The notes under the pieces were generated by a model. It saw nothing but the letters and a program-made list of their open reading frames with translations. It was not told the origin of the DNA and searched no databases. A stretch of DNA of 64,000 bases from Candidatus Omnitrophota bacterium (GTDB taxonomy: Bacteria > Omnitrophota > Gorgyraeia > Zapsychrales > JANLHA01): positions 131,864 to 195,863 of the forward strand of contig JAKLFA010000002.1 in assembly GCA_022711395.1 (NCBI GenBank). Reading direction: 5' to 3'. Below, piece after piece: positions 1 to 43,860 of the stretch. Position numbers and translations under genes: made by a program. Position 1 is the stretch's first letter. Every line of letters begins with the position of its first letter.

Positions 1-3000
1 ACACGAAGGATATTGTCCCGTGTAATTAAAGAATGATATTCAGGCCGAATGTTCTGTTGTATAAGTTCCTCCGCCTCTGTTTCGCTTAAAGTTGCCGCGT
101 TGGTGGCCTCACCCGCGGCAGGTTTTGTTTCTATCGATTCAAGGCTATCAAAAAGCTCATTAAAGAACACAACGCCCTCAGCGTAGAGCGCGAGCGCCCG
201 CTCTTCCTTCCCATCATTTTTTAAATGATAGATCGGCAAGTTTGCCATGATCTTGGCCAATGACGCAGACAAGCGCTGTTGCCAGTAGGGGTCGTTTTTC
301 GCAAATTCTGATGATCCAAAAAATTCTTCAGCCAGGGCCGGGAACCGGCGTTCCAACTCTTGATAGACTTGCCAGGCATGGCTGTCTTCTGGAAATTCCA
401 CCGTGATCGAAACGGTCCCATCAGGGTTTTCTTGCCGGGTGGTTTTTTCCAGATCATAGTTGAGCAGGTCATACTTACCGATGACTGTATGCGCGATCTT
501 TGCCAGATCATAGACCGGATCACCAACATAATCACCGCGCGGGTCCAGCAGAACGAATCCTCCGTCTTCTCTGAAAAACATGTTATCAAAATGAAAATCG
601 CCATGCGTCAATCTTAGGGCCGGCGGAGCTAATCGTTTGAGCAATTCCGGGTTCTGTTCCAGTTCGAGCAACAACGGAAGCACGTTTCTGTGGCGCTTTC
701 CATTGATGACGATATACTCAGCCTCAATAACGCTTTGAAAGACTTCGGGCGCTTGGCGCTTGACTTGTTCCAGCGATTCCCGGACCCGGTCGATCAGGAC
801 TTCTTTGAGATACATTTCAGGAACTGGCGCTGTGCGGGCACCCAGCATATGCTCGCGCCAGAATGACAAGACCTCTTTGAGCCGATTGATGATGAAATCT
901 GCGTTTTGCTGATCATAGATAATCGATTGTGTTAACGTCCGCCCTTCGTAGAACGGCATTTCATAATAGGGCTGTTGTTCGCCCTTGGTGTCGACCGATG
1001 TGCCCGGGATGTTTTGCGCGAGATTGAGAATGATCGAACGGACGTCTCCGTTGGCAAAATATGCCCGGACTGGAGATGCGTAAGCGGTTTTAGCCTGAAC
1101 GTCGGCTGCCTCGGCCGCCAAATCCTCGGGAGAGACATTGATGACGCCTTCGACTTCTAAATTTTCCGCTGTCGCTGCTGTTGCCTGTGTTTTTTTGATC
1201 CGCCGATTGATTTCTTCAGCAGGGACATCGGTAACTGCCACATACAATGCGGCATACTCGTTATTTTCCTGTTGGGACTGGTAATGAAAGATCCCCTCCT
1301 CATCGATATAATCATCGGCCTTTTGATCTTTGGACCCGATGCTTCGTAGTCCCTCCCCGACTTTTATAAGTTCATATTCTCCCGGGTTGAGTTTGACCTC
1401 CTGGGAGATTTCCTTGATCGCCACCAGATCTTCCTCCGCGGAGGCTCCGACATGACCGCCGAAGAAATCTTTTTGCCCGGGAGCGTTGACATCCGGCCGC
1501 TGGGCGCGTTTTTGGATCAGGATTTTTCCTGTCGATCTATTATAGATCACCACATGGACAACCCGGTGAGCGGTGCCGTTTTTGTGCGCTGATCCACGGG
1601 TCACAAAAAGGCCGGATGGACGGCCGGTTTTTGTGCTGACCGCATCAAGAAGCTCATTGTCTTTCTCCCCCTTGTAATGGACTTCCAGGTTGTGCCGGAC
1701 CACCCTGGAAAAGAATGGCCGCAATTGGGCCGGCAGCCCCAAGAGCCACTGGACTTGAGCGGTGAATTTCTTTTTATCACGGCCCCAGGAACCGGAAGGG
1801 GATTCTTTGCGGACCCGTCTTTGGCCGAAGTCCGTTTTGATCATCTTGAGATTGTTGGTTGAACCGCCTTTAAGTTTATTCGAGACAGATCTGACCGTTC
1901 GCCGAAGACCTTCGTCCACGCCGGACACAGAGAAAGAATTTTTCATATGCGCGTTGGCCGGCACGGTGATTTGGCTTGCTGAACGGCTGGCAAGAATTGG
2001 AACGGTTTTTTGAGATGAGGCCGTTTGGTCTTTAGATGCCTCTTCGATATAAATTTGCTGGATCCGCTGCGCGAATTCTTTTTTGGTAAGACCTTCAGCG
2101 CCGTTGATTTGGGATGTGCCGTAAGTTTCATTACTGATGACGGTCTTGACTGCTTCAGCCAGATCGTAAATAGACAACGGGTAACGGATCTGGGTGTCAT
2201 CGGCTTCGACCGGCTCTCCACGCTCGATTTTTTGAACAGTTTCTGTCACAAAATTGGAACGGTCATCGGGGGTGTTTCGCCCAAAAAGCATGCCGCTGCG
2301 GATAATGCTGTGCTGTTCAAATTGGCGCACGGCGTCTTCCCCGCGCTGTTTTGTCTGTCCATAAAAATTGATTGGGCTGGGAGAGTCTGATGCCTCATAG
2401 GGTGTTTCTTTTTTTCCGTCAAAGACATAATCAGATGACAGATAAACAAAATGCCCGTTAAAGTATTTTCGGAAGGCGTTGACCGCGCCGGCATTGAGAT
2501 ATTCAGCTGCCTGCGGATCTTTGTCCGCCTCTTGCGGGTCCGCTTCACCTGCGGCATAAACGATCACATCCGGCCGCGTTTCCGCAATGAACTTTTTGAT
2601 CTCATCTTCTTTGGTGACATCGAGTCTTTGAAAATCAGGCGTTTCCGCAGAAAAACTTGTCCCGATCACAGCGACGCTGTTCCCTTGCCGCAAAGCGGAA
2701 TAAATGCGCTGTCCGGCAAATCCGGACGCCCCTACCACGGCCACGGTTTTAAAAGGAGAAACGAAGATAGACTTGATCTGAGGAAATTTATTTTTGATCT
2801 TTTCGACATTTTCCGGGGTCGTTTCGAGCACAAAAATATCATCCGATTGGCTTTTCAGGATGTCCTGAATTCCTTTAAAGGACACGGCCTGGGGGACGCT
2901 TCCATAGGGAAGTATAATGACATCCCCTTCATCTCCATTTTTCAAACTGACTTCATCCGTGAAGTAATATTGAACTCCGTCAAATTCGCCATAAATCCGG

Positions 3001-5021
3001 ATTTTTCCCTTTTTCGTTCGGCCAATACGCTCTGCCAAACTTATGCGCTCATCCTGGCCATTCTGAATATTTTTAAGAGAGCGGTCGATCCTTCGTCCGT
3101 TTTCACCCAGGCTGTTGAGGTCTAAGATCTTATCAAGTGAAGCTCTGGCAGAGTCCGAAAGGCTGACGCCGTCTGATGCCAGGCGCTGCAGCAAACGGTC
3201 CTTAAAAGCGGAAACATTATCCACGTTGATGGCGGACAATACGTCCACCTCTTCTTTGAGGATCAGGGTGATCGCGCTCGCCAATGAGGGATCCATGGTG
3301 TCTAAGACAAGGTCTTCTTGAAATTCTGGATCTTCATCAGGCCGTCGCTCCCGCGTGTGATACATTAAGAATTTTTTAAATTTTTTTCCTTCCGGTGTTT
3401 TTTTGAGGGCTGACCAGATTGTGGACTTACCAACTCCGGAACCGCCTGAGTAAATAAAGAATTTATTTCCGGTCTCAGCCACATCTTTTTCCAGAATTTC
3501 TCTGAATTCTTTTGCCGCTTTGGCGACATTCTCTTGCTTTTGCTGCTCAGTGGGACCGAAAATATTAACTAATTGGTGATCATAGTCTTTTCTAAACTTC
3601 ATCCACCATTGAACGGATAATTCCATGCGTTCCAGCCACTTGTCTTGACGCATATCGATCGGTTCGCGTTGTCTCAATCGCTTCCAGTGCTCATCAATAA
3701 TTAACCGGATATCATGCTCATCGTATCCTTCTGAGACCATTTGGGCGACCAGGTTTTCGACAGATGCTAATTCCTGGGCCAACTTTTCCGCTGGATTTTC
3801 TTTGGGGGTTTCATCTTCCACTACAGACGCGTTGGTGGCGGCGCCGGTTTCCGGGCGGACTTCGAGGGCCAGTTTTAAATTTTTTCCCACAACAGAAGAA
3901 CGCACCTGCGCGGCGCTGGCGGTGGTTCCGATCTCAATGGCCGCGTCCTGAAACCCGCCGGAAAAATACTGTCTGGGGATCACGGTCTGGCTCAATTCAT
4001 CGTAATCTTCCTTAATATAGTTGAACACGCCCTGTTTGTAGGCGTCCATGTATTGCTCATAGATGCGCTCTTTCATTCCTTCATCATCGATCTCGATGCC
4101 CGCGGTCTTGTTGCGGTCGATATACACCTGCGACATCAGGCTGTTTTTCACGGTCTGTTTATACCATTTGGCGAGGATCAGCGAGTGATAGATCTGGCGC
4201 AATGGCGCGAAGTTTTTGCCCTGGTTGACCTCTTTTTCAATTTCAGGCAGGATCAGCTCGCGGATCATGTCTTTGCTGATCTGTGAAAGTTCGTCTGACT
4301 TTGAAACATCCGGCGCGCCCTGAATGCTGGTGCCGTCTGCCTCGCTCTGGCGGCTTTTTTGAAGCGCGATGTAATCCTCATCGAGCATGACCTTAAGATG
4401 CGTGTCCACGATATAGACGGTATTTTTGTGTTCATAAACGACCGCGGTCTCGGGAAGGATCCAGACCTTGTTAAACACATCCGTCGGGACGCTTTCAAGG
4501 CCGTAGCGTTCTTTGGCAGCTTTGTGGATGCGGTCCCAGAATTTCTTGCCCAGTTCGTTTTCAGGATAGACCAGGGTCGCGGTGAGCTGTTTTAAAATAT
4601 AATCCTGCGCCAACAGGTCGCGGCCCAGTTCGGTCTTGCCCAGTTCCTCAGGGATAATACGGTCTTTTTCGTAAGGAGACAAATTGACCCAAAGATCATT
4701 GTGAGGCACGGTCATGGAGGCTAAAAAATATTTGACCAACCGCTGGGATTCGGCCGTTATGTCTTGCTGATCATATTCGGCATTCCCGCTGTCGATAATA
4801 AAATCGAATTGCAGCGGATTGTCCGGATGAACGGTCATGCCTTTTAAGAGAACAGGCACAAAAGCCGGACTTACGCTGACCATGGCTCCCGGCAGCGGAA
4901 GGCCGATCGATTGCGCGTAACCTGGCGGCAGAATGGTTGTGGAAAGAAAGCTGAAAACAAGAACAGCGGACAGAAGTCTTACGGCAAAACCAAAACGGTT
5001 TTGTTGAATGGTGTGGAACAT
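1..5021 (-). CDS. Giant secreted multi-domain protein, at least 1673 aa; C-terminus lies beyond the window start. Domain order: signal peptide; novel N-terminal region of about 430 aa; P-loop NTPase or kinase-like domain; RmlD-like NAD(P)-dependent sugar-nucleotide reductase domain; degenerate Nudix domain; aminoglycoside-phosphotransferase or choline-kinase-like domain
   Basis: Codon-by-codon hand translation of the minus frame (plus-strand triplets starting at positions divisible by 3) found no stop codon from the ATG at 5019-5021 down to position 3. An in-frame TAG lies upstream at 5058-5060. An AGGGGG ribosome-binding site sits 5 nt before the ATG. N-terminus MFHTIQQNRFGFAVRLLSAVLVFSFLSTTILPPGYAQ|SIG is signal-peptide-like. 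Motifs seen: FFIYSGGSGVGKST (Walker A, about 3429-3470); KTVAVVGASGFAGQRIY (Rossmann fold, about 2715-2760) plus FVYLSSDYVFDGKKETPY...PINFYGQTKQRGE (RmlD-like, about 2350-2450); VVHVVIYNRSTGKILIQKRAQ...PGQKDFFGGHVGASAEEDLVAIKEISQEVKL (Nudix-like, about 1410-1570); LRLTHGDFHFDNMFF and LLDPRGDYVGDPVYDLAK (aminoglycoside-phosphotransferase-like, about 510-620). The gene is missing from the supplied ORF track, apparently because the track only lists ORFs that both start and stop inside the window. Confidence 0.8.
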   Translation of the reverse strand, partial: MFHTIQQNRFGFAVRLLSAVLVFSFLSTTILPPGYAQSIGLPLPGAMVSVSPAFVPVLLKGMTVHPDNPLQFDFIIDSGNAEYDQQDITAESQRLVKYFLASMTVPHNDLWVNLSPYEKDRIIPEELGKTELGRDLLAQDYILKQLTATLVYPENELGKKFWDRIHKAAKERYGLESVPTDVFNKVWILPETAVVYEHKNTVYIVDTHLKVMLDEDYIALQKSRQSEADGTSIQGAPDVSKSDELSQISKDMIRELILPEIEKEVNQGKNFAPLRQIYHSLILAKWYKQTVKNSLMSQVYIDRNKTAGIEIDDEGMKERIYEQYMDAYKQGVFNYIKEDYDELSQTVIPRQYFSGGFQDAAIEIGTTASAAQVRSSVVGKNLKLALEVRPETGAATNASVVEDETPKENPAEKLAQELASVENLVAQMVSEGYDEHDIRLIIDEHWKRLRQREPIDMRQDKWLERMELSVQWWMKFRKDYDHQLVNIFGPTEQQKQENVAKAAKEFREILEKDVAETGNKFFIYSGGSGVGKSTIWSALKKTPEGKKFKKFLMYHTRERRPDEDPEFQEDLVLDTMDPSLASAITLILKEEVDVLSAINVDNVSAFKDRLLQRLASDGVSLSDSARASLDKILDLNSLGENGRRIDRSLKNIQNGQDERISLAERIGRTKKGKIRIYGEFDGVQYYFTDEVSLKNGDEGDVIILPYGSVPQAVSFKGIQDILKSQSDDIFVLETTPENVEKIKNKFPQIKSIFVSPFKTVAVVGASGFAGQRIYSALRQGNSVAVIGTSFSAETPDFQRLDVTKEDEIKKFIAETRPDVIVYAAGEADPQEADKDPQAAEYLNAGAVNAFRKYFNGHFVYLSSDYVFDGKKETPYEASDSPSPINFYGQTKQRGEDAVRQFEQHSIIRSGMLFGRNTPDDRSNFVTETVQKIERGEPVEADDTQIRYPLSIYDLAEAVKTVISNETYGTSQINGAEGLTKKEFAQRIQQIYIEEASKDQTASSQKTVPILASRSASQITVPANAHMKNSFSVSGVDEGLRRTVRSVSNKLKGGSTNNLKMIKTDFGQRRVRKESPSGSWGRDKKKFTAQVQWLLGLPAQLRPFFSRVVRHNLEVHYKGEKDNELLDAVSTKTGRPSGLFVTRGSAHKNGTAHRVVHVVIYNRSTGKILIQKRAQRPDVNAPGQKDFFGGHVGASAEEDLVAIKEISQEVKLNPGEYELIKVGEGLRSIGSKDQKADDYIDEEGIFHYQSQQENNEYAALYVAVTDVPAEEINRRIKKTQATAATAENLEVEGVINVSPEDLAAEAADVQAKTAYASPVRAYFANGDVRSIILNLAQNIPGTSVDTKGEQQPYYEMPFYEGRTLTQSIIYDQQNADFIINRLKEVLSFWREHMLGARTAPVPEMYLKEVLIDRVRESLEQVKRQAPEVFQSVIEAEYIVINGKRHRNVLPLLLELEQNPELLKRLAPPALRLTHGDFHFDNMFFREDGGFVLLDPRGDYVGDPVYDLAKIAHTVIGKYDLLNYDLEKTTRQENPDGTVSITVEFPEDSHAWQVYQELERRFPALAEEFFGSSEFAKNDPYWQQRLSASLAKIMANLPIYHLKNDGKEERALALYAEGVVFFNELFDSLESIETKPAAGEATNAATLSETEAEELIQQNIRPEYHSLITRDNILR

Positions 5022-5120
5022 GGCAGCCCCCTGCGTTTTGATATGAAAAAGCGTTTTCTATGCAGAAAAAGCATAGCATATTTTTGATGAAAAAACAAAC
5101 ATGATTAAATTAAGGGAATT

Positions 5121-6626: not shown

Positions 6627-6703
6627 AGGGTTTTAATAGACTTATTGTAGTATTTTTGGGGATATTTGATAGGAGTTTTTTGGTTTTCGGGGCGCCGTTC
6701 AAT

Positions 6704-6734
6704 AAAAAACCCCTAATGAGAATCAGGGGTTTTT
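6704..6734 (-). terminator. Intrinsic terminator (bidirectional hairpin flanked by A- and T-tracts), downstream of the tRNA-Met gene
   Basis: AAAAAA then cccctaatgagaatcagggg then TTTTT. On the minus strand the stem is followed by a run of six T. Confidence 0.5.
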
Positions 6735-6799
6735 CTGTATATGTTGATCGGTTCCGGATGGCTGTTTCAAGAGCCGAACCATGAACCTCAAGATGGTCA

Positions 6800-6875
6800 T
6801 GGTAGCGGGAAGTGGGATCGAACCACCGACATAACGGGTATGAACCGTTTGCTCTACCAACTGAGCTATCCCGCC
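6800..6875 (-). tRNA. tRNA with anticodon CAU: elongator tRNA-Met, or tRNA-Ile2 if the C is lysidine-modified
   Basis: Hand-folded 76-nt cloverleaf: GGCGGGAUAGCUCAGUUGGUAGAGCAAACGGUUCAUACCCGUUAUGUCGGUGGUUCGAUCCCACUUCCCGCUACCA. Anticodon loop UUCAUAC. Encoded CCA end. The anticodon stem lacks the GGG/CCC run that marks initiator tRNAs. Confidence 0.8.
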
Positions 6876-6969: not shown

Positions 6970-7272
6970 CTATGAATATAAAATGATCGAGATCAGGACC
7001 CCGATGATGACCAGGGAAACGATATAAAAGCTGTTGAAATAAAAAAGGTCCCGGATCCGTTCCCCTGCCGTATATTCAAACTGCACATTTTCATTTTTGA
7101 CCTCACCGCTTTTGCGCAGGGCCAGGACCTCCGCTTTTTTCAAACGCAAGAACTGGTCGGCGATCTTGTAAGCCTTCAGGTCGGTAGACTGGATCAGGTC
7201 CATGATCTTTTTTTCGGAGACCCCCAACAGGTTGGCGGCTTCCCGGACGGAAATATATTGGCTGTCTGCCAT
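6970..7272 (-). CDS. Small excisionase or MerR-type HTH (HTH_17-like) protein with a C-terminal transmembrane anchor
   Basis: 100 aa. ISVREAANLLGVSEKKIMDLIQSTDLKAYKIADQFLRLKKAEV is a helix-turn-helix. The C-terminus FYIVSLVIIGVLISIILYS is hydrophobic. Confidence 0.5.
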   Translation of the reverse strand: MADSQYISVREAANLLGVSEKKIMDLIQSTDLKAYKIADQFLRLKKAEVLALRKSGEVKNENVQFEYTAGERIRDLFYFNSFYIVSLVIIGVLISIILYS

Positions 7273-7299
7273 GGCGCTGGCCCTCTATTCGATTGACGG

Positions 7300-7830
7300 T
7301 TAGATCTGCGCGGTCGATGCCCAGGAATCGATCTGCGAACGCTCGAAGATCCAGGAATCTCCCGTGCGCTTGGCGGGGATCTTTCCGGCGTTGGCCAGGT
7401 CAATGATCGCGGAAGAATCGATCTGCAGATATTTGGCCAACTCATCGATATTCATGGTGTCCTCGATCATCTGGCACTGCCCCTGAAAAATGGCCCCTTC
7501 GACAATGTTGAGCTTCGGGGTCGTGATGTTGCCGGTCAAGACCGCGGTGGGCATCAAAACCAGCATGCGCTTGGCGATGACGTCCCCTCTGACCTTGCCG
7601 GCCAGGACAATGTTCTCCCCCGTGATATGGGCTTCCACGAAAGCGTTGTTTCCTATGGTCAGGGTCCCGCGGACATCCAGGGTCCCGTTGAAATTGCCGT
7701 TGACCTTGAGGTTTACAGGATCTTTAAAGGACAGAGAGCCCTGCATTTGGGCGCTGATCTCAATGGTCTTTTCCTCCTGGGAAGAGCTGGACGCTGAATC
7801 GGAACGTGTTTTGCTGGGTTTGAACGCCAT
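7300..7830 (-). CDS. Bactofilin (DUF583 beta-helical polymerising domain) fused to a C-terminal excisionase-type HTH domain
   Basis: 176 aa. SLSFKDPVNLKVNGNFNGTLDVRGTLTIGNNAFVEAHITGENIVLAGKVRGDVIAKRMLVLMPTAVLTGNITTPKLNIVEGAIFQGQCQM has the bactofilin repeat pattern. The C-terminal part MNIDELAKYLQIDSSAIIDLANAGKIPAKRTGDSWIFERSQIDSW matches the HTH_17 pattern. Confidence 0.6.
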   Translation of the reverse strand: MAFKPSKTRSDSASSSSQEEKTIEISAQMQGSLSFKDPVNLKVNGNFNGTLDVRGTLTIGNNAFVEAHITGENIVLAGKVRGDVIAKRMLVLMPTAVLTGNITTPKLNIVEGAIFQGQCQMIEDTMNIDELAKYLQIDSSAIIDLANAGKIPAKRTGDSWIFERSQIDSWASTAQI

Positions 7831-7835
7831 GGGAT

Positions 7836-8291
7836 TTACTCCTTGTTGTTTTGAGCTTTGATCCGCTTTTCGAAGGAACGAACGCCGATCAGAACGAAGA
7901 ACACGATCAGCGTAAAGACAGTTGCCGTGATATACTGCCCTACTCCGACGGCCATCCCGATGCAGGCGACCGTCCAGACCGTGGCGGCGGTGGTCAGCCC
8001 CACGACCTGGTCCCCGGCCCGGATGATGGTCCCGGCGCAGAGAAAACCGATGCCGGTGATGATGCCGTGCAGCAAACGGGTCGGGTCTAAATTGGTGTCT
8101 CTATATATATCAGAAACATAAATTGAAGTCAAGGCGACCAGGCAGGCGCTGATCCCGACGAGCATGTGGGTCCGCAGGCCCGCGCCCTTATGGCGGGATT
8201 CCCGCTCGAGCCCGATGAGGCCGCTTAAGAGCGTTGCCAGCAAGAGTTTCAGGATTATCGTGACCGGATCAGAAAATTCCATAACTATCAT
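7836..8291 (-). CDS. mgtC: MgtC/SapB family membrane protein
   Basis: LIGLERESRHKGAGLRTHMLVGISACLV matches the MgtC signature. 151 aa with several transmembrane helices. Confidence 0.65.
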   Translation of the reverse strand: MIVMEFSDPVTIILKLLLATLLSGLIGLERESRHKGAGLRTHMLVGISACLVALTSIYVSDIYRDTNLDPTRLLHGIITGIGFLCAGTIIRAGDQVVGLTTAATVWTVACIGMAVGVGQYITATVFTLIVFFVLIGVRSFEKRIKAQNNKE

Positions 8292-35865: not shown

Positions 35866-36327
35866 TTACTTCAAGCCGGAAAAGGCTCCTATTCCGGTCC
35901 GTGTGACGTTCGTAGATGTTTGTGCGACGATAATCTGAGATCCGGTGCTCCCACCATCAAGCGTGTTGCGGTATGCCGTAATCGTGTATCCCACCGTTGA
36001 CGGAGAGGTGATCGAATAGGTGAAGTGCGCATTCGGCGACGAAGCAGGTGTTTCAATGTCCAGCTGGGTGAAACCGCCGTTGCCGCAGTTGACGTAAGTC
36101 CCATTATTCTGAAGGTAGCACCTTTCCATGGAAGAACGGATCGTCGCGATCGCGGATAACGCTTCCGCGCTTCTTGAGAATTCGACGGTTGAGAACAGAC
36201 GAGGTAAAGCTAAACTCGCCAAGACACCAACGATGATGATGACAATGATAATTTCAAGCAGTGTAAAACCGCTTTGGTTGCGTTTTAAACTCATTTTTTC
36301 GTCTCCTTTATGTATAACAGAATTCAC
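35866..36327 (-). CDS. pilA: Type IV major pilin (PilA-like)
   Basis: NQSGF|TLLEIIIVIIIVGVLASLALP. Followed by its own terminator. Confidence 0.7.
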   Translation of the reverse strand: MNSVIHKGDEKMSLKRNQSGFTLLEIIIVIIIVGVLASLALPRLFSTVEFSRSAEALSAIATIRSSMERCYLQNNGTYVNCGNGGFTQLDIETPASSPNAHFTYSITSPSTVGYTITAYRNTLDGGSTGSQIIVAQTSTNVTRTGIGAFSGLK

Positions 36328-36448: not shown

Positions 36449-36662
36449 TTAATTCGATGTTCGAATTATCGGCAGCTGGCTATCCCAAATGGTTTGGGAC
36501 CCTGTAGTTTTGTGCCCTACCCTCACGGATAGTTTACCTTGAACAATAATTCTCATATGTTCTTGCCTTAAGTATAGCTGATTCAAGCTTAAATATCAAT
36601 GTCTACAGACCTACCTATATAATAATAAATATATATAAATAAAAAAAGAATTTTCTTAAGAA

Positions 36663-37916
36663 TTAACCTCCTCCGCCTCCGCCCAACTGGGCAATGTTGA
36701 ACATCGGTAGAAACATCGCCAGGACAATGATGCCGATCACCGCTCCCATGAAGACAAGCATGAATGGCTCAATGACGGTTGCAAGGCGCTTCATGAACGT
36801 TTCGACCGTTTCCTGATAGAAATTGGCGACATGCTTCAGCATTTTGCTGAGTTCCCCGGTCTCTTCTCCCACGATGATCATTTGGATGGCCATGCCCGGG
36901 AAGAACTCGCTTCTCTCCATCGGGGCGGCCAGCAACTCGCCTCTGCGGACGCTTTCTTTGATATCGGAAATCACATTAGCGCAGGTCATGTTATCGACAA
37001 GCCGCTGGCTGATATCCAAGGCTTGAAGGATCGGAACGCCGCTGTCAACGAGGATCGCCATCTGGGACGTGAAGCGTTCCACGATGATGAGGCGGAAGAT
37101 GTTTCCGAATGTGGGCAGGCTTAATAGGAATTTCTCCTTTGCGAATCGGCCGGATGGGGTTTGGATGTAGCGTTTTATGAGAAAGACCGCCACAGCGATA
37201 GTGCCGATGATCAAAAGGAATTTCTCCTTGATAAATCGGAACGTGCCCAAAAGGATCTTGGTGATGAGTGGCAGGTCTACGCCCATAGTCGTGAAAATGC
37301 TTTCGAAACGCGGCCCAACGAAAAGTGCGAAAAATGAAACGGCTCCCATACAGATGAAGAACAGGATCACAGGATACATGATCGACGATATGATCGTTGA
37401 GCGGAAGTGCGCTTGTTGTTCCAGATAAAAGGATAATTTGTTCAAGACCTTAGGCAGGGTCCCTGCTGCTTCACCGACTTCAATGAGGCTGACCCAGAAT
37501 TGATTGAAGACCTTGGGATGATGGGCCATGGCCTCTGAAAGCGCGCTGCCGTGCTCAACATCACGGTTGACCTGTTCGATCACGCTGTAAAGTTTTTCGC
37601 TTTCGATCTGGCTGAGGATGACCTCCAGGCTTCTTAAAAGGGTCACGCCGGATTCAAGCATGGTGACAAGCTGGCGGGAAAAAGAGATCACATCATGGAG
37701 TTTGATCTTCTTATGGGTGAATTTTTTTTCCTTTGTTTTTTTAGGGGCTGCAGCGGCCGCCTCGATGCCCGGTTCGCTGGATACCGATTCAATCTTAAGA
37801 ACGAAGTATCCCTGCTTTTGAAGTTTCTCAATAAGGGATTCCCTGGAAAAGTCCTCAACGACGTTGGTAAGGGTTTTGCCATATGAGTCTTTAATGGTGT
37901 ATTTGAATTTTGGCAA
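36663..37916 (-). CDS. pilC: Type IV pilus or type II secretion platform protein (PilC/GspF family)
   Basis: 417 aa with two GspF-type repeats and inner-membrane helices. Confidence 0.8.
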   Translation of the reverse strand: MPKFKYTIKDSYGKTLTNVVEDFSRESLIEKLQKQGYFVLKIESVSSEPGIEAAAAAPKKTKEKKFTHKKIKLHDVISFSRQLVTMLESGVTLLRSLEVILSQIESEKLYSVIEQVNRDVEHGSALSEAMAHHPKVFNQFWVSLIEVGEAAGTLPKVLNKLSFYLEQQAHFRSTIISSIMYPVILFFICMGAVSFFALFVGPRFESIFTTMGVDLPLITKILLGTFRFIKEKFLLIIGTIAVAVFLIKRYIQTPSGRFAKEKFLLSLPTFGNIFRLIIVERFTSQMAILVDSGVPILQALDISQRLVDNMTCANVISDIKESVRRGELLAAPMERSEFFPGMAIQMIIVGEETGELSKMLKHVANFYQETVETFMKRLATVIEPFMLVFMGAVIGIIVLAMFLPMFNIAQLGGGGGG

Positions 37917-37938
37917 TGTCCGGGCTCCTTAAAGGTGC

Positions 37939-39654
37939 TTACGTGGAAGACGTGACGCTGACGATTTCATCAAAACTTGTGATCCCCGCCTCAACTTTTT
38001 TTATACCGTCATCGAACAGGGTGTCCATCCCGTTCTTTCTGGCCGCGTCGAGGATCTTGATATAGGTCGCTTCCTTGGAGATCAATTCACGAATGGCATC
38101 ATCGATCAGCATGGTCTCGGTCAGGATGATACGGCCGTGGTAACCGGTATGATTGCACTCCTCACAGCCCTTGGCTTTATAGATGAGGTCGCTTTTAAAG
38201 CTGATCCCTCCGAAGAGGTCAGGGTTCGGCTCAACGGGTTCTTTGCATTTTGAACACAGGCGCCGGGCCAGCCGTTGAGCAACGATACATATCAGAGACG
38301 GTGTTAAAAGGTATGATTCTATGCCGATATCGAGGAGTCGGGTAATGGCGGAAGCGGCGTCGTTGGTGTGCAGTGTGCTTAAGACAAAGTGCCCTGTCAG
38401 GGCCGCGCGCACGCAGATCTGGGCTGTTTCAAGGTCACGGACCTCTCCGACCATGATGACATCCGGGTCCTGGCGCAAAAATGAGCGAAGCGCTGAGGCG
38501 AACGTAAGCCCGATGTCAGGCTTGACCTGGACCTGGTTGATGCCTTCGAGCTTAAACTCCACCGGGTCTTCAGCGGTCATGATGTTCTTTCGCGGGTCGA
38601 TCGTTTCGCTGAGGGCGGAATAGAGCGTGGTGGACTTTCCGCTTCCGGTCGGACCGGTCACAAAGAAAAGACCATAAGGCCTTTTTAGCGATTTTTTGAT
38701 GTTTTCCAATTGCGTCGGGTCGAATCCGAGGTTGGAAAGTTCGAGTTTGACGGCTTCTTTATCCAGGATACGCATGACGACCTTCTCTCCCCAGACGGTG
38801 GGGATCGTTGAAACACGGATGTCAACGACGCGGTCGTTATGTTTGAACGAAATGGCCCCATCCTGGGGAAGGCGTTTTTCTGCAATATCCAGACGGGAAA
38901 GGATCTTCAGGCGTGAAACAATGGCGGAATGCAGGCTTCTTGATGGCGGCGGGATCTGATAGAGCGCCCCGTCGATCCGGTAGCGAAGGTTGATCCGTTC
39001 CTTAAAGGGTTCGATGTGAATGTCGCTTGATCGTTGTTCGATCGCCTGTTTGATAATGAGGTCCACAAGCTTGATGACCGGGGCCTCTTCGGCTTTTTCG
39101 ATCAATTTATCAAGGTCTGTGGCCTTGCTGCTGTCCTTCTTCTGTTCACCCGTTCCGTCTTCTTTTTTTTCATGATCGGTCTGGTCCAAAGGGCCTTGCG
39201 CGGCATGCGACCGGATGATCGTATAGAAGTCCTGGATGGCGGCGACAAGGCTGCTATGGGTGGCGATGATCAGGTTGATCTCACATCCAGTGATCATTTT
39301 CAGGTTGTCCAGCATCATAAGGTCCAGGGGATCGGTGACCGCGCACGTAAGGACGTGGCCTTTTTTGGTTATGGGCAGGACAAGATTGGTTTTGGCGAAA
39401 TCATGGGGAACGAGCTTGTCGAGCCCCTGGGAGGTATTTGGTTTTAAGAGATTATTATCTTTGTTGGCATAAGGAAGATTCAGCTGTGTTCCCAGAGCGG
39501 CGATGATATCATCTTCGGTCAGGGTCCCCATTTTAACAAGGATCTCCCCCAGCCGTCCCCGTTCCCGCTTTTGACGGCTGATGGCGTCTTTTAATTGCTC
39601 TTCAGAGATCAGGCCCTGTTGAATTAGGATTTCACCAAGTTTTTGATGCGCCAC
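37939..39654 (-). CDS. pilB: Type IV pilus assembly ATPase PilB/GspE, with an N-terminal GspE_N domain
   Basis: Walker A GPTGSGKSTT. Tetracysteine zinc motif CSKCK...CEEC. 571 aa. Confidence 0.85.
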   Translation of the reverse strand: MAHQKLGEILIQQGLISEEQLKDAISRQKRERGRLGEILVKMGTLTEDDIIAALGTQLNLPYANKDNNLLKPNTSQGLDKLVPHDFAKTNLVLPITKKGHVLTCAVTDPLDLMMLDNLKMITGCEINLIIATHSSLVAAIQDFYTIIRSHAAQGPLDQTDHEKKEDGTGEQKKDSSKATDLDKLIEKAEEAPVIKLVDLIIKQAIEQRSSDIHIEPFKERINLRYRIDGALYQIPPPSRSLHSAIVSRLKILSRLDIAEKRLPQDGAISFKHNDRVVDIRVSTIPTVWGEKVVMRILDKEAVKLELSNLGFDPTQLENIKKSLKRPYGLFFVTGPTGSGKSTTLYSALSETIDPRKNIMTAEDPVEFKLEGINQVQVKPDIGLTFASALRSFLRQDPDVIMVGEVRDLETAQICVRAALTGHFVLSTLHTNDAASAITRLLDIGIESYLLTPSLICIVAQRLARRLCSKCKEPVEPNPDLFGGISFKSDLIYKAKGCEECNHTGYHGRIILTETMLIDDAIRELISKEATYIKILDAARKNGMDTLFDDGIKKVEAGITSFDEIVSVTSST

Positions 39655-39666
39655 GCCAATGGTCCT

Positions 39667-41109
39667 TTATTTATCGGGAAGGTCCTGTTCCCGAATAAGT
39701 TTTTTCGTCACATTATTCTTCATCGTCGAGGTGTTGTCCACAATGTGTGGGGTGATAAAAATGAGAAGTTCCCGCTCCTGGGAAATCACTTGTTTGTGCC
39801 GGAAGGCCGCGCCCAGGACGGGGATATCTCCCAATAAAGGGACTTTCGTCAGGGTTGTTGTTGTTTCTTCCCGGAGAAGTCCGCCGATCACGATCGTTGA
39901 GCCGTCCATGATCTTCAAAACCGCGGAAGCGGTCCGGGTTTCAGGATCCTTAAAGGTGGTGCCTCCGATGGTCAATCCGGATTTCGCAAGCGTGTGTGAC
40001 GGGACAAGGGCCATGGTGATTTCCCGGGTATCCAAGTTCGCTTGGGGTGTTACGGTCAGGATGACCCCCGTTTCAGCCCGTTCCGCTTCAACGGTCTGGG
40101 TTGTTGTGCTGTCGGATGAGCCGGTGCTTGTTGTCTTTTCTCCGATCGCCTCGTTCGTGCTGATCTTGATCTGTGCTGTTTGGTTGTTGAGGGTTAAGAT
40201 CCGTGGCCGGGCGAGGTTCTTGGTGTCTCCCTGGGTCCGGAGAAAATTCAACGTCGCAGTAAACCCTCTGGCATCCATGAGCCCGGTCGTCAGACGGGCT
40301 TCCTCGTAATCAACATTAGGAAGTTCATCTAAAAGCGGAAAAGACCCATCCCAGGGAAACGCGTTCTGGTAGGATCCGCCGCTCAAAATCAAGGGCGTGT
40401 CTCCCCATTTGATGCCAAGCTTATCGGTGATCGCTTTTGCCACTTCGATCATTTCCACTTCAATGAGAACCTGCGGCACATTGATATCAAGGCGGGCGAT
40501 CGTCTGTTCAATGACAGGAAAATTCGCTGCGATATCCGTAATGATCAAACTGTTGGTCCGGGAGTCTTCAGAGATCTTCCCATCTTTTGTCAGGACCTTT
40601 TTAATGGCCTCTGTGATACCGGAGTCGGTGCGGGATGATTCTTCGCCGCCCCCCCCGCTTTCGGTGCTGATATTCAATAATGTATTGATGGGTGATGAAG
40701 CCACCGCCGCATTTTTGAGCTGATAGATGCGTGTCACGAGCTCGATCTCAGGTTTTTTGATCGGTTTAACGATATAGATATTGGATCCGGGCTGGATTTC
40801 ATAGGTGAGATCATTCGCTCGCAGGATCTGTTCGAGGGCCTGCTCAATCGGGACTTTTTCAAGATAGACGGTCACGGTCTTGCGGCTGATCTCCTGTGAG
40901 GCGACCAGGTTGAGCTGGCTTTGTTTGGAAAAGATCTTCAGGATGTCCACCAGAGGGGCGTCCTGAAAATCCATGGAGATCGTTTTTGAATATTCAGGAT
41001 AAATGAACGGACTTGAGGTGTCGATTTCAATGTTCTCTGAGTGGCCTGCAACCCCATCGAGAACGCAAATCACGCTGCAGCACATGAGCAAGGTGACAAT
41101 ATATTTCAT
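39667..41109 (-). CDS. pilQ: Secretin (PilQ/GspD family), compact at 480 aa
   Basis: Signal peptide, N0/N1-like domains, secretin core IVIGGLLREETTTTLTKVPLLGDIPVLGAAFRHK. Confidence 0.8.
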   Translation of the reverse strand: MKYIVTLLMCCSVICVLDGVAGHSENIEIDTSSPFIYPEYSKTISMDFQDAPLVDILKIFSKQSQLNLVASQEISRKTVTVYLEKVPIEQALEQILRANDLTYEIQPGSNIYIVKPIKKPEIELVTRIYQLKNAAVASSPINTLLNISTESGGGGEESSRTDSGITEAIKKVLTKDGKISEDSRTNSLIITDIAANFPVIEQTIARLDINVPQVLIEVEMIEVAKAITDKLGIKWGDTPLILSGGSYQNAFPWDGSFPLLDELPNVDYEEARLTTGLMDARGFTATLNFLRTQGDTKNLARPRILTLNNQTAQIKISTNEAIGEKTTSTGSSDSTTTQTVEAERAETGVILTVTPQANLDTREITMALVPSHTLAKSGLTIGGTTFKDPETRTASAVLKIMDGSTIVIGGLLREETTTTLTKVPLLGDIPVLGAAFRHKQVISQERELLIFITPHIVDNTSTMKNNVTKKLIREQDLPDK

Positions 41110-41124
41110 CTTGAGCCTCTCCTT

Positions 41125-41679
41125 TTATGGCGAAAACCAATAAATGTTTTTTGTATCGATCCCCATTTTAACACCCTGTGTATTGATTTCAATCACGGTC
41201 CACCCGCTTAATTTGTCCCCAATGGAAAGGACTTCATTATTAACGATCGCCTGTGGAATATCTGTGTCCCAAACGATCCCCTGGACTCTGAAATTTGGTT
41301 TCGGGATGGGAATGGGCTCGCCACCTTTATCGCTCACGGGTGGTGGCAAGAGCGGCATAGGCTCTGTTTTGACCGGTGGCGTCTTGATCTCTTCAACAGG
41401 GGCCTCCGGGACGGGGAGCGCGGATTGAAAAGGGTTCTTGAGCGTGATGATCGCGTCCACGGGGCAGCGACTTTTCGTCTGGCTTGTCAAACGGTCATGC
41501 AGGGACTGCAATGGTTTGGTATCAAGGGTTGACGGAAACGGCGATCTGCCAGCCAGGGCCTCCCGCAAAGGATCAACGGTCACGGGTTTGATATTCTGCT
41601 GGGCATGCGATGGCGATATGCCGAATGCCAGTGCGATACAAAGCAAGCCGATGATTTTTAAGAGATAAGGTCTATTCAT
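41125..41679 (-). CDS. Periplasmic proline-rich protein, PilP-like candidate
   Basis: Signal peptide, a Pro-rich linker, and a C-terminal beta domain (FRVQGIVWDTD...). Fits the PilP position between pilO and pilQ. Confidence 0.4.
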   Translation of the reverse strand: MNRPYLLKIIGLLCIALAFGISPSHAQQNIKPVTVDPLREALAGRSPFPSTLDTKPLQSLHDRLTSQTKSRCPVDAIITLKNPFQSALPVPEAPVEEIKTPPVKTEPMPLLPPPVSDKGGEPIPIPKPNFRVQGIVWDTDIPQAIVNNEVLSIGDKLSGWTVIEINTQGVKMGIDTKNIYWFSP

Positions 41680-42307
41680 CTTTCAAAAAATTTACCGCGT
41701 GTACGGTGATCGTAACGGAAAACTCACTTGTCGTATCTTGTCCCTCTGAAGATGACCTGATGGGACGCCTGTTTGACTGGCTGGATTTTGCGACCGAAGT
41801 TGACCCGAGATTAAAATTTTGGATCGTGATGACCTCGGGAAGGATTTCCAGCTGTTCGATAAATGCCCACATGGATTTATAATTTTGGGATGACAGAGTA
41901 AGCGTCAACGGAAAGATCGTAAATTTTTCCTTTTGCATGGGTTCTCCGGGAGAGAACGAGTGGATCCGCACATTATAATTCTTGGCCAGCTCAGCCATGA
42001 GATTGATCAGACTTTTTTCGGATATTTCCGGGGGCAGCGCAGCTAAGATTTTTTTGCTGAATGCTTCGACTTCGTTTAGTTCATTGAGCTTCGCCAGTTT
42101 ATCCTGTGCGGTCTTGACCTGGATGTTGAGTTGGGACAGCTTACCTTTGTTCACGTTATAAACCCAGATACAGAGAAAGATCGATACAATAACGCCAACG
42201 AATTGAGCGGAAATGTCCCAGCGTTTTTTAAAAAATTCAAGGACCTCCTTCCAGTTGACATTTTTAAGGTCCTTGATATCGATTTGGCTAAGTTCTTTGA
42301 GGTTCAT
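41672..42307 (-). CDS. pilO: PilO-like inner-membrane pilus alignment protein
   Basis: One transmembrane helix, a coiled coil, then a periplasmic domain. Call rests mainly on synteny. Confidence 0.45.
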   Translation of the reverse strand: MNLKELSQIDIKDLKNVNWKEVLEFFKKRWDISAQFVGVIVSIFLCIWVYNVNKGKLSQLNIQVKTAQDKLAKLNELNEVEAFSKKILAALPPEISEKSLINLMAELAKNYNVRIHSFSPGEPMQKEKFTIFPLTLTLSSQNYKSMWAFIEQLEILPEVITIQNFNLGSTSVAKSSQSNRRPIRSSSEGQDTTSEFSVTITVHAVNFLKDE

Positions 42308-43860
42308 TTTTGCTGATCCTCACAGGAAATGCTGAATTCAGTTATTGTATATTCCTCGGTTTTGGTCTCAGTGATCGAATTGCGTTTGACCCTGTCAAAG
42401 AGATTGGCCAGGTCCGGGTTTTCATCCACCGAGGCGATGAAATCATTGATCACGCGGACCTGTTCATGGGCTTCAGGCAAATAGATTTTTCCAGTTATGG
42501 AGATGCGGGCCCGTTTTTCTGCCGGAGCGGCTGTCGTGGGCTTGTTGGGGTCGGGCGATAATGATTCAGCGTCCACGTATTGGATCGATAGATTTGTCAG
42601 CCAGATGCCTTTCGGCATCAGGGAAGATATTTTATACAGGATAAAAGCAACCTCGCTTTTCATCTGGACATTGCTGTATTGGGCAACTTTAGAAAAAAGC
42701 GCTTTGGCTTGCTGCTCAATATCAGTTGAAGAAAGAACCTCATATTTTCCAAGCTGTGAATTGATCTTGGAGAGAACGCCTTGATTATATTTCATGAGTC
42801 CGGCGGTAATGAAATTGGTCAAAAGCGGGGCGATCAGGCAGCCCGCCAGCGTTCCCGCCATGATAAAAATGCGCGTGTTCTTGGCTGACGGTAAAACACC
42901 GGATCGTATGATGCCCACGGCTTTAGGGGACAGATCGAAATCCCGTGTTGAAAAAGTTTTTCCTTTAAGGGTCGCGCCATAGGCAATGAGCGTATCGATG
43001 TTGGGAGGCGTCAGGTTCAGGTTCAATTCCTGAACGTTGATCATGCGCGTCGGGATGTTGATGTCTTTGGAAAGTTCAGGGCTTACGTCATGAATATCGA
43101 AATCAGCCAGGATCAGGAACTTTGTGATCTTGCTCTGGGGGTTTTGCCGGCTGAAAAAATTGACCGAGACCCCGATGTTGTCGGCCAGCACGCCGCGGAA
43201 GACCTGCGGATTTGAATCGAGCGTCCCTAAATTGAGGGTGCGGATGAACTGCATGACATCGTTATCAAAGACCATGATCTCACTCTCATCAGCGGAAAGG
43301 GATAGCGTGGCGGTCGTTTCGGAGCGGTTCAGAAATTTCTGATTACGGAGGATCCTGGCGGAAGCCACGCCGGCAGGTTCAATATGAGAAATTTCAAACC
43401 CCGCATTGCGGAAGATTTGCACATATTCATCAAGGGCGGTTTTCCGTATCGCGATAAAAATGATCCGCAGCATTTTTTGAGTGCGGTCAGTAAACGGTTC
43501 AGCGTGATACGTGTAAACCAGTTCATGGATCGGTATGGGGACGTATTTTGTGACTTCGAATTCAATGACACTGCGGATCTCATCAGAGCTCATGAATGGG
43601 ATGTGGAATGACCGAAAGATCAATTTCTGGGTCGGCAGAGCCAGGCCGACTTCAGTAACATCGCTGGCGATCGGAACAAGTTTTTCCTTGAGGAATGCGG
43701 ACCGACGTAAATATTCGGGAGCCTCGGCGTCAGGATCGCCTTTTTGCGGAACAGGAAACGGCAGGGTCATACTGGTAGAAATTTTTCCATTGTCGACCCG
43801 GACAATGCTGAGTGATGTTTCGCCCCAAAAGACGCCGATTTGAGATTTTGTTTTTGCCAT
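42304..43860 (-). CDS. pilM: PilM-PilN fusion (actin-like ATPase fold PilM plus a C-terminal transmembrane and coiled-coil PilN-like segment)
   Basis: 518 aa. A PilM-like N-terminal region of about 340 aa. Transmembrane helix IFIMAGTLAGCLIAPLLTNFI followed by a periplasmic tail. Confidence 0.55.
   Translation of the reverse strand: MAKTKSQIGVFWGETSLSIVRVDNGKISTSMTLPFPVPQKGDPDAEAPEYLRRSAFLKEKLVPIASDVTEVGLALPTQKLIFRSFHIPFMSSDEIRSVIEFEVTKYVPIPIHELVYTYHAEPFTDRTQKMLRIIFIAIRKTALDEYVQIFRNAGFEISHIEPAGVASARILRNQKFLNRSETTATLSLSADESEIMVFDNDVMQFIRTLNLGTLDSNPQVFRGVLADNIGVSVNFFSRQNPQSKITKFLILADFDIHDVSPELSKDINIPTRMINVQELNLNLTPPNIDTLIAYGATLKGKTFSTRDFDLSPKAVGIIRSGVLPSAKNTRIFIMAGTLAGCLIAPLLTNFITAGLMKYNQGVLSKINSQLGKYEVLSSTDIEQQAKALFSKVAQYSNVQMKSEVAFILYKISSLMPKGIWLTNLSIQYVDAESLSPDPNKPTTAAPAEKRARISITGKIYLPEAHEQVRVINDFIASVDENPDLANLFDRVKRNSITETKTEEYTITEFSISCEDQQK

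Follow-up and report, generated by a model that had tools for sequence, protein, structure and literature searches.

A bactofilin fused to a winged helix and its tail-anchored winged-helix partner form a conserved gene pair, and a putative cytoskeletal module, in Omnitrophota

Canonical bactofilins, such as BacA/BacB, the T. thermophilus bactofilin and CcmA of H. pylori, combine a PF04519 core and a polymerisation phenylalanine with a short, basic and disordered N-terminal tail. We analyzed two adjacent open reading frames (ORFs) on the minus strand of a 64,000-nucleotide stretch of Candidatus Omnitrophota DNA (assembly GCA_022711395.1, contig JAKLFA010000002.1, positions 131,864 to 195,863 of the forward strand). 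This whole stretch is referred to as the window and all coordinates are given within it. The first, ORF A, encodes a bactofilin fused to a winged helix-turn-helix (HTH) domain; the second, ORF B, encodes a small winged-helix protein with a C-terminal membrane anchor. A shares the core, the phenylalanine and the tail with canonical bactofilins, but it bears a folded C-terminal winged helix in place of their disordered C-terminal tail, it is obligatorily paired with B, and its core is unusually conserved (84%). In addition, the hydrophobic residue of the bactofilin membrane-targeting sequence is displaced in A and absent from a second subfamily of the fusion, here called P0252-like. The bactofilin and HTH_17 families are already known; what is new is that a winged-helix module is built into the bactofilin and that a second winged-helix protein, tail-anchored, is its obligate partner.

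Several described systems resemble this pair in part. RacA-DivIVA of B. subtilis likewise connects a MerR/Xis-type winged helix to a membrane-associated polymeric scaffold, and RacA was a Foldseek match of the winged helices of both A and B (A-HTH and B-HTH). However, the DNA-binding domain and the scaffold of that system reside on separate proteins, unlike in A, and the recognition helix of RacA is basic (K-T-V-Q-R-W) where that of A reads x-x-I-x-E/D-L/W; ram-like sites were not identified here, no search aimed at them having been made. BldC, Xis and RdfS, which bind DNA cooperatively in a head-to-tail manner, have the same small monomeric winged-helix fold as the A and B domains. These proteins are basic, free-standing DNA-bending factors, the excisionases among them accompanied by integrases, whereas A-HTH is acidic and neither gene is associated with a mobile element; among the annotated neighbours of A and B, no phage integrase or recombinase family, as expected beside a true excisionase, was reported. 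RodZ is a bitopic protein with a periplasmic domain and an XRE-type cytoplasmic HTH that docks the actin-like MreB. RodZ-MreB provides a working analogy for B, although B has an HTH_17 domain, has no extracytoplasmic part and would have a bactofilin as its partner.

In Myxococcus xanthus, BacNOP-PadC-ParB/ParA links a bactofilin scaffold to DNA segregation and does so through the adaptor PadC and ParB rather than through a domain fused to the bactofilin (PMC5703909). The most diverged subfamily of the fusion (P0304-like) similarly lies beside a ParA/MinD-type ATPase; genes for ParA, ParB or PadC were not found accompanying the window module, among its annotated neighbours or in the related loci. 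In B. subtilis, the bactofilins BacE and BacF contact the HTH protein BacR close to its HTH; they bring it to the membrane and keep it from binding DNA (PMC13649987). BacR (YhbD, DUF4004) is, as B is predicted to be, a small membrane-located HTH protein encoded in an operon with bactofilins. BacR is soluble, though, belongs to DUF4004 and is encoded upstream of the bactofilin genes, whereas B is tail-anchored, belongs to HTH_17 and is encoded downstream of a bactofilin that itself carries an HTH. Only HTH-type families were matched by B in the Pfam scan, and its transmembrane tail further separates it from BacR.

ORF A (7300-7830, minus strand) encodes 176 amino acids from an ATG start to a TAA stop at 7300-7302 without an internal stop. 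Pfam places the bactofilin family PF04519 on residues 23-120 (80.2 bits against a cut-off of 27.9; profile positions 3-98 of 98) and HTH_17 (PF12728) on residues 126-171 (36.7 bits against 27), and the NCBIfam model TIGR01764 ('excise', cut-off 28.8) scored 30.6. An earlier reading of the DNA letters and ORF translations alone (the sequence-only reading) had described a bactofilin core that runs straight into an HTH in a single frame. This description holds, as both domains lie above cut-off in one uninterrupted ORF whose translation contains the two peptides quoted in that reading, GAIFQGQCQM and IDELAKYLQIDSS. We rule out that a frameshift or misassembly created the fusion, because the 120 best homologues of each of two subfamilies, recovered in two independent searches, all carry both domains, with lengths of 168-190 residues.

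Structures of both proteins were predicted as single chains with AlphaFold2 (AF2), topology was assigned with DSSP and fold matches were found with Foldseek. The model of A has a mean predicted local distance difference test (pLDDT) score of 82. Its N-terminal tail (residues 1-19, 7774-7830), which starts MAFKPSK, is predicted to be disordered, with pLDDT below 50 at residues 6-18. The core (residues 20-121, 7468-7773) is modelled as all-beta, with a beta-helix at residues 21-116 at a pLDDT of about 90; in the model it has the right-handed beta-helix of a bactofilin and matches C. crescentus BacA (2n3d; template-modelling (TM) score 0.83, root-mean-square deviation (rmsd) 2.1 Å) and the T. thermophilus bactofilin (6rib; TM score 0.76). 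A modelled linker of about five residues leads to A-HTH (residues 125-172, 7315-7458), an acidic domain of the Xis/BldC/RacA (MerR-like) fold with the topology strand-helix-helix-strand-strand-helix. Its Foldseek matches are BldC (6ama), RdfS (8dgl), Pukovnik Xis (4j2n), RacA (5i44), CbpM and Rpp, and its best sequence matches in the PDB are RacA and BldC, with E of about 1e-3.

ORF B (6970-7272, minus strand; stop codon 6970-6972) encodes 100 amino acids. HTH_17 was found on residues 6-53 (33.9 bits) and TIGR01764 scored 33.1, both above cut-off; the C-terminal segment of A and the domain of B each score as HTH_17 in Pfam. The AF2 model has a mean pLDDT of 74. The mildly basic winged helix (residues 5-55, 7108-7260) has the same topology as that of A at residues 6-55 and superimposes on Pukovnik Xis with an rmsd of 0.9 Å at 32% identity, BldC and RacA also being matched; over the winged-helix matches of the A and B domains (BldC, Xis, RdfS and RacA), TM scores reach 0.87, those for BldC being 0.76-0.87. 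A linker and a short helix at residues 69-79 follow. An aromatic juxtamembrane motif, Y-T-x-x-E-R-x-x-D-F-F-Y-F-N, occupies residues 67-80 (7033-7074) and continues as D-F-Y at 81-83, according to the alignment of 61 family members. The protein ends in a predicted transmembrane tail anchor (residues 81-100, 6973-7032), whose helix at 81-99 was modelled at a pLDDT of 94 and over whose final 19 residues Kyte-Doolittle hydropathy averages 2.55. Throughout the 61-member alignment the hydrophobic segment ends within a few residues of the C-terminus, suggesting that B is without an extracytoplasmic domain. The second HTH_17-like domain and single transmembrane helix that the sequence-only reading assigned to this gene were therefore both recovered, but its designation of the two HTH domains as paralogues stands only at the profile level: profile-profile comparison related them with 95% probability at 19% identity, whereas BLASTP of A-HTH against B-HTH returned nothing, and we rejected a close paralogy.

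The two genes are separated by a spacer of exactly 27 nucleotides (7273-7299), from the stop codon of A to the ATG of B at 7272, in agreement with the distance first reported. The spacer contains a Shine-Dalgarno-like GAGGG for B at about 7281-7286. We compared gene order in 57 related loci. A B homologue lies directly downstream of A in 56 of them, and the sole exception is cut by the end of its contig. The gap between the two genes has a median of 7 nucleotides over the 57 loci, and in 19 of these the genes overlap by 4 nucleotides as ATGA; judged from such arrangements, these overlaps are a signature of the translational coupling of A and B. In the window, A and B share a reading frame and read-through of the TAA would yield a bactofilin-HTH-HTH-transmembrane protein; the shared frame is probably a coincidence since it is not conserved in the other loci. 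Candidates for a natural ("Rosetta-stone") fusion of A with B proved to be fragments of the same bactofilin-HTH fusion or other combinations (PilZ; three tandem HTH_17 repeats).

Database searching for bactofilin-HTH fusions recovered a conserved two-domain family. With ORF A as query 911 homologues were found, the best 120 of which are 66-99% identical to it and 168-190 residues long, with both Pfam domains in 120 of 120; all named matches are Candidatus Omnitrophota. The search with ORF B gave 186 homologues. The 120 listed are of about 100 residues (98-108), and those with a name are again Omnitrophota. The P0252-like subfamily, about 38% identical to the window's A, has 2330 members at E ≤ 1e-20; the best 120 are two-domain proteins and the named matches are Omnitrophota or Omnitrophica. 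Its genes occupy a different neighbourhood (frr ... A'-B'-(greA)-acpS-ydjC, e.g. L063 6001-6828 and L064 6001-6898), in which B' directly follows A' and encodes 94-97 residues with an HTH_17 domain, a juxtamembrane RDFWRFNNFY or LDFWRYNGFY and a transmembrane tail. By these comparisons, the A-B gene pair appears as a conserved unit, kept in at least two deeply diverged Omnitrophota subfamilies.

The spread of the fusion was examined further at two scales. A scan of GTDB with one genome per species and a query alignment of 8 sequences identified 53 genomes with the fusion locus, in one case on a complete chromosome of 3.36 Mb. Matches with a phylum-level name were Omnitrophota or Omnitrophica; the others have generic labels, e.g. 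'uncultured Planctomycetales', which we take to be mislabels. A HMMER search of 1.84 billion cluster representatives (E ≤ 0.001) gave 10,211 bactofilin-like matches, and of the best 150, which were listed, roughly 25-30 span both domains, the lowest identity being about 31%. The combination had appeared uncommon in the sequence-only reading. That is so among bactofilins overall, but not within Omnitrophota, where the two subfamily searches and the genome scan found it repeatedly, and on this sequence evidence the fusion appears to be characteristic of the phylum. Public annotation labels the fusion proteins either 'polymer-forming cytoskeletal protein' or 'excisionase family DNA binding protein'. 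Literature searches combining bactofilin with Omnitrophota, Omnitrophica or excisionase returned nothing relevant in the collection searched, the one match for Omnitrophica being an unrelated phylogeny paper, and such a fusion is not described in the general bactofilin literature consulted. Family hidden Markov models run against the six-frame translation of the window detected no further bactofilin or HTH copies. Two relatives have other architectures: in P0280 the same bactofilin core subfamily is joined to a PilZ (c-di-GMP-binding) domain, and P0268, the closest non-bactofilin relative of A-HTH, is a basic protein of 231 residues with three tandem HTH_17 repeats.

Sequence constraint differs between the parts of the two proteins. 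Within the close subfamily, to which all mean pairwise identities refer, identity is 84% for the bactofilin core of A, 65% for A-HTH and 32% for the N-terminal tail. In B it is 72% for the winged helix, 73% for juxtamembrane residues 67-83 and 43% for the transmembrane segment. Across the same loci, TsaD, encoded by a flanking gene, shares about 58-60% identity with the copy in the window. In comparison with TsaD, the constraint on both winged helices and on the juxtamembrane motif suggests that these are functional surfaces and not decaying appendages.

The features of A that bear on polymerisation and membrane attachment were compared with those of BacA. A PDB profile search aligned GAIFQG of A with GAFFQG of BacA, so that F115 of A corresponds to F130 of BacA, and all 65 aligned sequences of the close subfamily keep F115. 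The F130R exchange disrupts the polymerisation interface of BacA (PMC12448750). On the basis of this correspondence, the beta-helix core of A is expected to polymerise. The bactofilin membrane-targeting sequence is MFSKQAKS in BacA, with the consensus MFSKKKK, and F2 and K4/K7 are critical (PMC12448750). In 120 homologues A starts with M-[AGS]-[LFI]-[RK]-x-[RK]-[RK], which resembles this sequence except that the hydrophobic residue is at position 3, displaced by one; the P0252-like subfamily starts MAKKKEE, without a hydrophobic residue. Because the motif is displaced in one subfamily and absent from the other, the membrane affinity of A itself is uncertain, and membrane attachment in the P0252-like subfamily would need B. 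Both points fit B as the anchor. Client membrane proteins are known to add to the membrane binding of bactofilins (PMC12448750).

The charge pattern of the two winged helices was examined for its bearing on DNA binding. The net charge of A-HTH is -4.3 ± 1 (range -6 to -2, n = 65 sequences), -2.1 ± 1 in the P0252-like subfamily and about -8 in the P0304 group by hand count. In 140 sequences, Lys or Arg account for 4% or less at each recognition-helix position from 139 to 148, and Asp or Glu for 99% at position 138, 89% at 144 and 84% at the wing tip, 158. Position 144 aligns with the Arg of K-T-V-x-R-W in BldC and RacA; Pukovnik Xis has an Asn there (K-T-V-R-N-Y). P0268 retains Lys or Arg at the sites where A-HTH is acidic. 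The net charge of B-HTH, by comparison, is +2.0 ± 1.3, and it retains the basic residues K21, K22, K/R36, R43, K45 and K/R46, each in 97% or more of the sequences. Basic DNA-contact residues of the K-T-V-x-R-W type are thus missing from A and only partly present in B. By its residues, A-HTH does not look like a standard DNA binder, and the winged helix of B would be the better candidate for any DNA contact of the module. Since the basic DNA-reading surface of A-HTH has been lost and the domain is acidic, it is most likely a protein-protein adaptor.

We propose, as a tentative explanation, that the pair builds a membrane-attached bactofilin platform in which the winged helix of A is a protein adaptor and B is the membrane receptor and a possible point of DNA contact. 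A and B, co-produced through translational coupling of their genes, would constitute a single cytoskeletal module of two proteins in Omnitrophota. Each subunit of the A polymer would display, behind a linker about 5 to 35 residues long, a C-terminal winged helix of the Xis/BldC/RacA type. B would be a tail-anchored inner-membrane protein with a cytoplasmic winged helix followed by the aromatic juxtamembrane motif, and would serve as receptor or anchor for the polymer. In the window's subfamily, the basic N-terminal motif of A may add weak membrane affinity. A-HTH could dock on the basic winged helix of B or on another client. There are precedents for an HTH used in this way: that of RodZ binds MreB, and Rpp-TerS and CbpM-CbpA are further cases. 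BacR, contacted by BacE and BacF beside its HTH and brought by them to the membrane, is another working analogy (PMC13649987).

Several observations weigh against this proposal. The charged surface positions of the two winged helices are nearly invariant, and we obtained no usable covariation between A-HTH and B-HTH. Polymerisation of A is not guaranteed because the linker of about five residues puts the HTH beside the C-terminal polymerisation face. The DNA competence of B is itself uncertain because an invariant Asp (D25) occupies the canonical Arg position. A-HTH, in turn, keeps the basic residues K150 (86%), K/R155 (95%) and R164 (99%), its close structural relatives (BldC, Xis, RdfS and RacA) are all DNA binders and RacA, its best PDB sequence match, anchors chromosomes. 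Acidity need not prevent a winged helix from binding DNA, and the avidity of a polymer could offset weak sites. Finally, the most diverged, P0304-like subfamily (31% identity) has no detectable B in the loci recovered, and its fusion gene follows one for a ParA/MinD-type ATPase (L060 866-4317 and L059 1112-4567, both metagenome contigs), a neighbour that hints at a positioning role involving the nucleoid. The P0304-like locus may encode a positioning system that is driven by ParA and includes a bactofilin-HTH protein. Its ATPase has a C-terminal CBM48/AMPK1_CBM domain of glycogen-binding type, and the fusion gene also follows two unannotated ORFs.

Some of these observations would be explained by a direct tether between chromosome and membrane, in which arrays of winged helices on the A polymer bind DNA by avidity and the winged helix of B binds it too. 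The two would anchor or position the chromosome as a fused equivalent of RacA-DivIVA or BacNOP-PadC-ParB, and the binding could be cooperative and head-to-tail, like that of BldC, Xis and RdfS. Both domains are bona fide HTH_17/excisionase-type winged helices whose closest structures are of DNA-bound proteins, RacA heads the PDB sequence matches of A-HTH, B retains a basic wing and helix start, and the P0304-like fusion shares an operon with its ParA/MinD-type ATPase. Myxococcus bactofilins are tied to chromosome organisation via PadC-ParB/ParA (PMC5703909). On the other hand, A-HTH is acidic in all three subfamilies examined and its recognition helix is without basic residues; Asp or Glu occupy the wing tip and the position of the canonical Arg, sites where the nearest stand-alone relative, P0268, keeps Lys or Arg. 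Moreover, ParB, parS and origin markers were not found near the module among the 21 annotated ORFs between window positions 3 and 32,646. We regard the tether as possible but doubtful. A bolder version is a self-contained chromosome-anchoring cytoskeleton, conserved across Omnitrophota, which would bind DNA through acidic-faced A arrays or filament-held B and so replace the adaptor layers of RacA-DivIVA and PadC-ParB; we consider it rather unlikely. The sequence-only reading had suggested a DNA-binding head on the scaffold that, together with a membrane-tethered HTH, anchors or positions a chromosome or plasmid. The HTH domains and the membrane anchor in that suggestion are upheld, but A-HTH as the DNA binder is weakened by its acidic character and a recognition helix without Lys or Arg. 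A role in plasmid anchoring is unlikely, as the pair resides in a housekeeping operon and full-length copies are absent from the 72,556 plasmids and 50,697 phage records searched.

The order of genes around the pair is usually gatCAB-ctp-(PF04748 deacetylase)-tsaD-(mgtC)-A-B-tRNA-Met and is kept across dozens of Omnitrophota species genomes. In the window the upstream neighbour is mgtC (7836-8291, minus strand; PF02308, 134 bits), a gene that about 60% of related loci have between tsaD and A. A starts 5 nucleotides past mgtC, whose stop codon falls within the ribosome-binding region of A and is overlapped by the Shine-Dalgarno-like AAGGAG at 7839-7844, 8 nucleotides upstream of the ATG. Downstream, 94 nucleotides from B, is the gene for tRNA-Met(CAT) (6800-6875, minus strand), found by ARAGORN and Rfam. 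It has a match to a sigma-70-like promoter (TTGATA-17-TAAAAT, 6931-6903, minus strand) and is followed at about 6703-6735 (minus strand) by a CCCCT...AGGGG hairpin with a loop of more than 8 nucleotides and a T-run, which likely marks the end of the transcription unit. Of the 25 related loci checked for it, 20 have a tRNA-Met gene downstream of B, and this neighbour is, by its distribution, ancestral.

These neighbours include a Ctp protease, a PF04748 polysaccharide deacetylase, MgtC and a PMT_2-type glycosyltransferase, all of which are envelope-related. Together with the links between bactofilins and membrane proteins that recur in the literature (PMC13649987; PMC12448750), they could suggest a conventional envelope scaffold like BacA-PbpC or CcmA, whose winged helices would be no more than incidental tags for oligomerisation or solubility and would contact neither DNA nor a specific HTH. 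However, A and B stay together when the neighbourhood changes, which leaves the envelope genes outside the conserved unit, and both winged helices are under strong purifying selection, surface charges included. Such a scaffold therefore seems improbable to us. We also weighed a regulatory role like that of BacR, akin to the filament-controlled transcription factor that the sequence-only reading had offered as an alternative, in which the access of B or of A-HTH to DNA would be gated by sequestration on the filament or at the membrane, with A-HTH as an acidic decoy. B. subtilis BacR with BacE/BacF provides the precedent (PMC13649987), the charges of the two domains are complementary (-4 for A-HTH and +2 for B-HTH) and the gaps and overlaps between the genes point to tight co-expression. 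Against this, B would be permanently inserted in the membrane with no evident release mechanism, protease site or sensor domain, the Pfam scan gave no DUF4004 match for either protein, and the window pair, with A so close behind mgtC, has no adjoining intergenic operator region. The conservation of the core at 84% also suggests a structural role rather than a purely regulatory one, and we hold regulation of this kind to be quite improbable. It is extremely improbable that the pair is a remnant or component of a mobile element, that is, an excisionase-type gene at a tRNA-Met attachment site with an incidental bactofilin fusion: both proteins do score as 'excisionase family' in TIGR01764, tRNA-Met does lie just downstream and there are weak matches to the defence-system HTH MAD1, but we rejected this reading because the housekeeping gene order is conserved across species, the tRNA-Met is ancestral, phage integrase and recombinase families are absent from the reported annotations of flanking genes and the plasmid and phage searches gave no full-length match.

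A few further matches were considered and set aside. A scored 40.4 with MAD1 (NF047737) against a cut-off of 80, and the PADLOC mad1 model gave only 27 bits; B scored 26.4 with MamR (NF040990) against a cut-off of 100. With scores so far below the cut-offs, these matches reflect only the shared HTH_17 fold. A match to a Leptospira plasmid bactofilin (71% query cover) was to an ordinary bactofilin of 146 residues.

Other features of the window are recorded here as separate observations. An ORF of at least 1685 residues (3-5057, minus strand) is cut by the left end; an RmlD/NAD-epimerase domain lies at residues 772-1040 and an APH phosphotransferase domain at 1459-1522, the rest being unannotated. 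From 5121 to 63808 nearly all long, likely-gene ORFs lie on the minus strand, a very strong bias over about 59 kb. These genes include secDF, mfd, surA, pdxA, rsmA, gatCAB, the his operon, alaS, recX, recA and a type IV pilus cluster at 36663-43860 (PilM, PilO, secretin, a PilB-like ATPase with MshEN, and PilC). At the end of this cluster are a pilin gene with N_methyl and ComP_DUS domains (35866-36327, minus strand) and, just upstream of it, a c-di-GMP-I riboswitch (36468-36548, minus strand; 57.7 bits against a gathering score of 35).

The recruitment of clients by bactofilins, a widespread class of scaffold, is poorly understood. In this Omnitrophota lineage, a module that would bind clients is hard-wired onto every subunit and comes with its own tail-anchored partner. 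Conservation of the pair exceeds that of the flanking tsaD; at 176 and 100 residues, A and B would be a compact and tractable two-protein system for coupling a lattice to the membrane and possibly to DNA. Should the winged helices bind DNA, the pair would provide the first cytoskeletal polymer of the bactofilin family to carry a DNA-binding domain of its own. Should they bind one another, it would clearly exemplify the recruitment of an excisionase-type HTH as a connector between proteins. The pair would also provide an initial view of Omnitrophota cell biology, the phylum being known here from metagenome-assembled genomes only.

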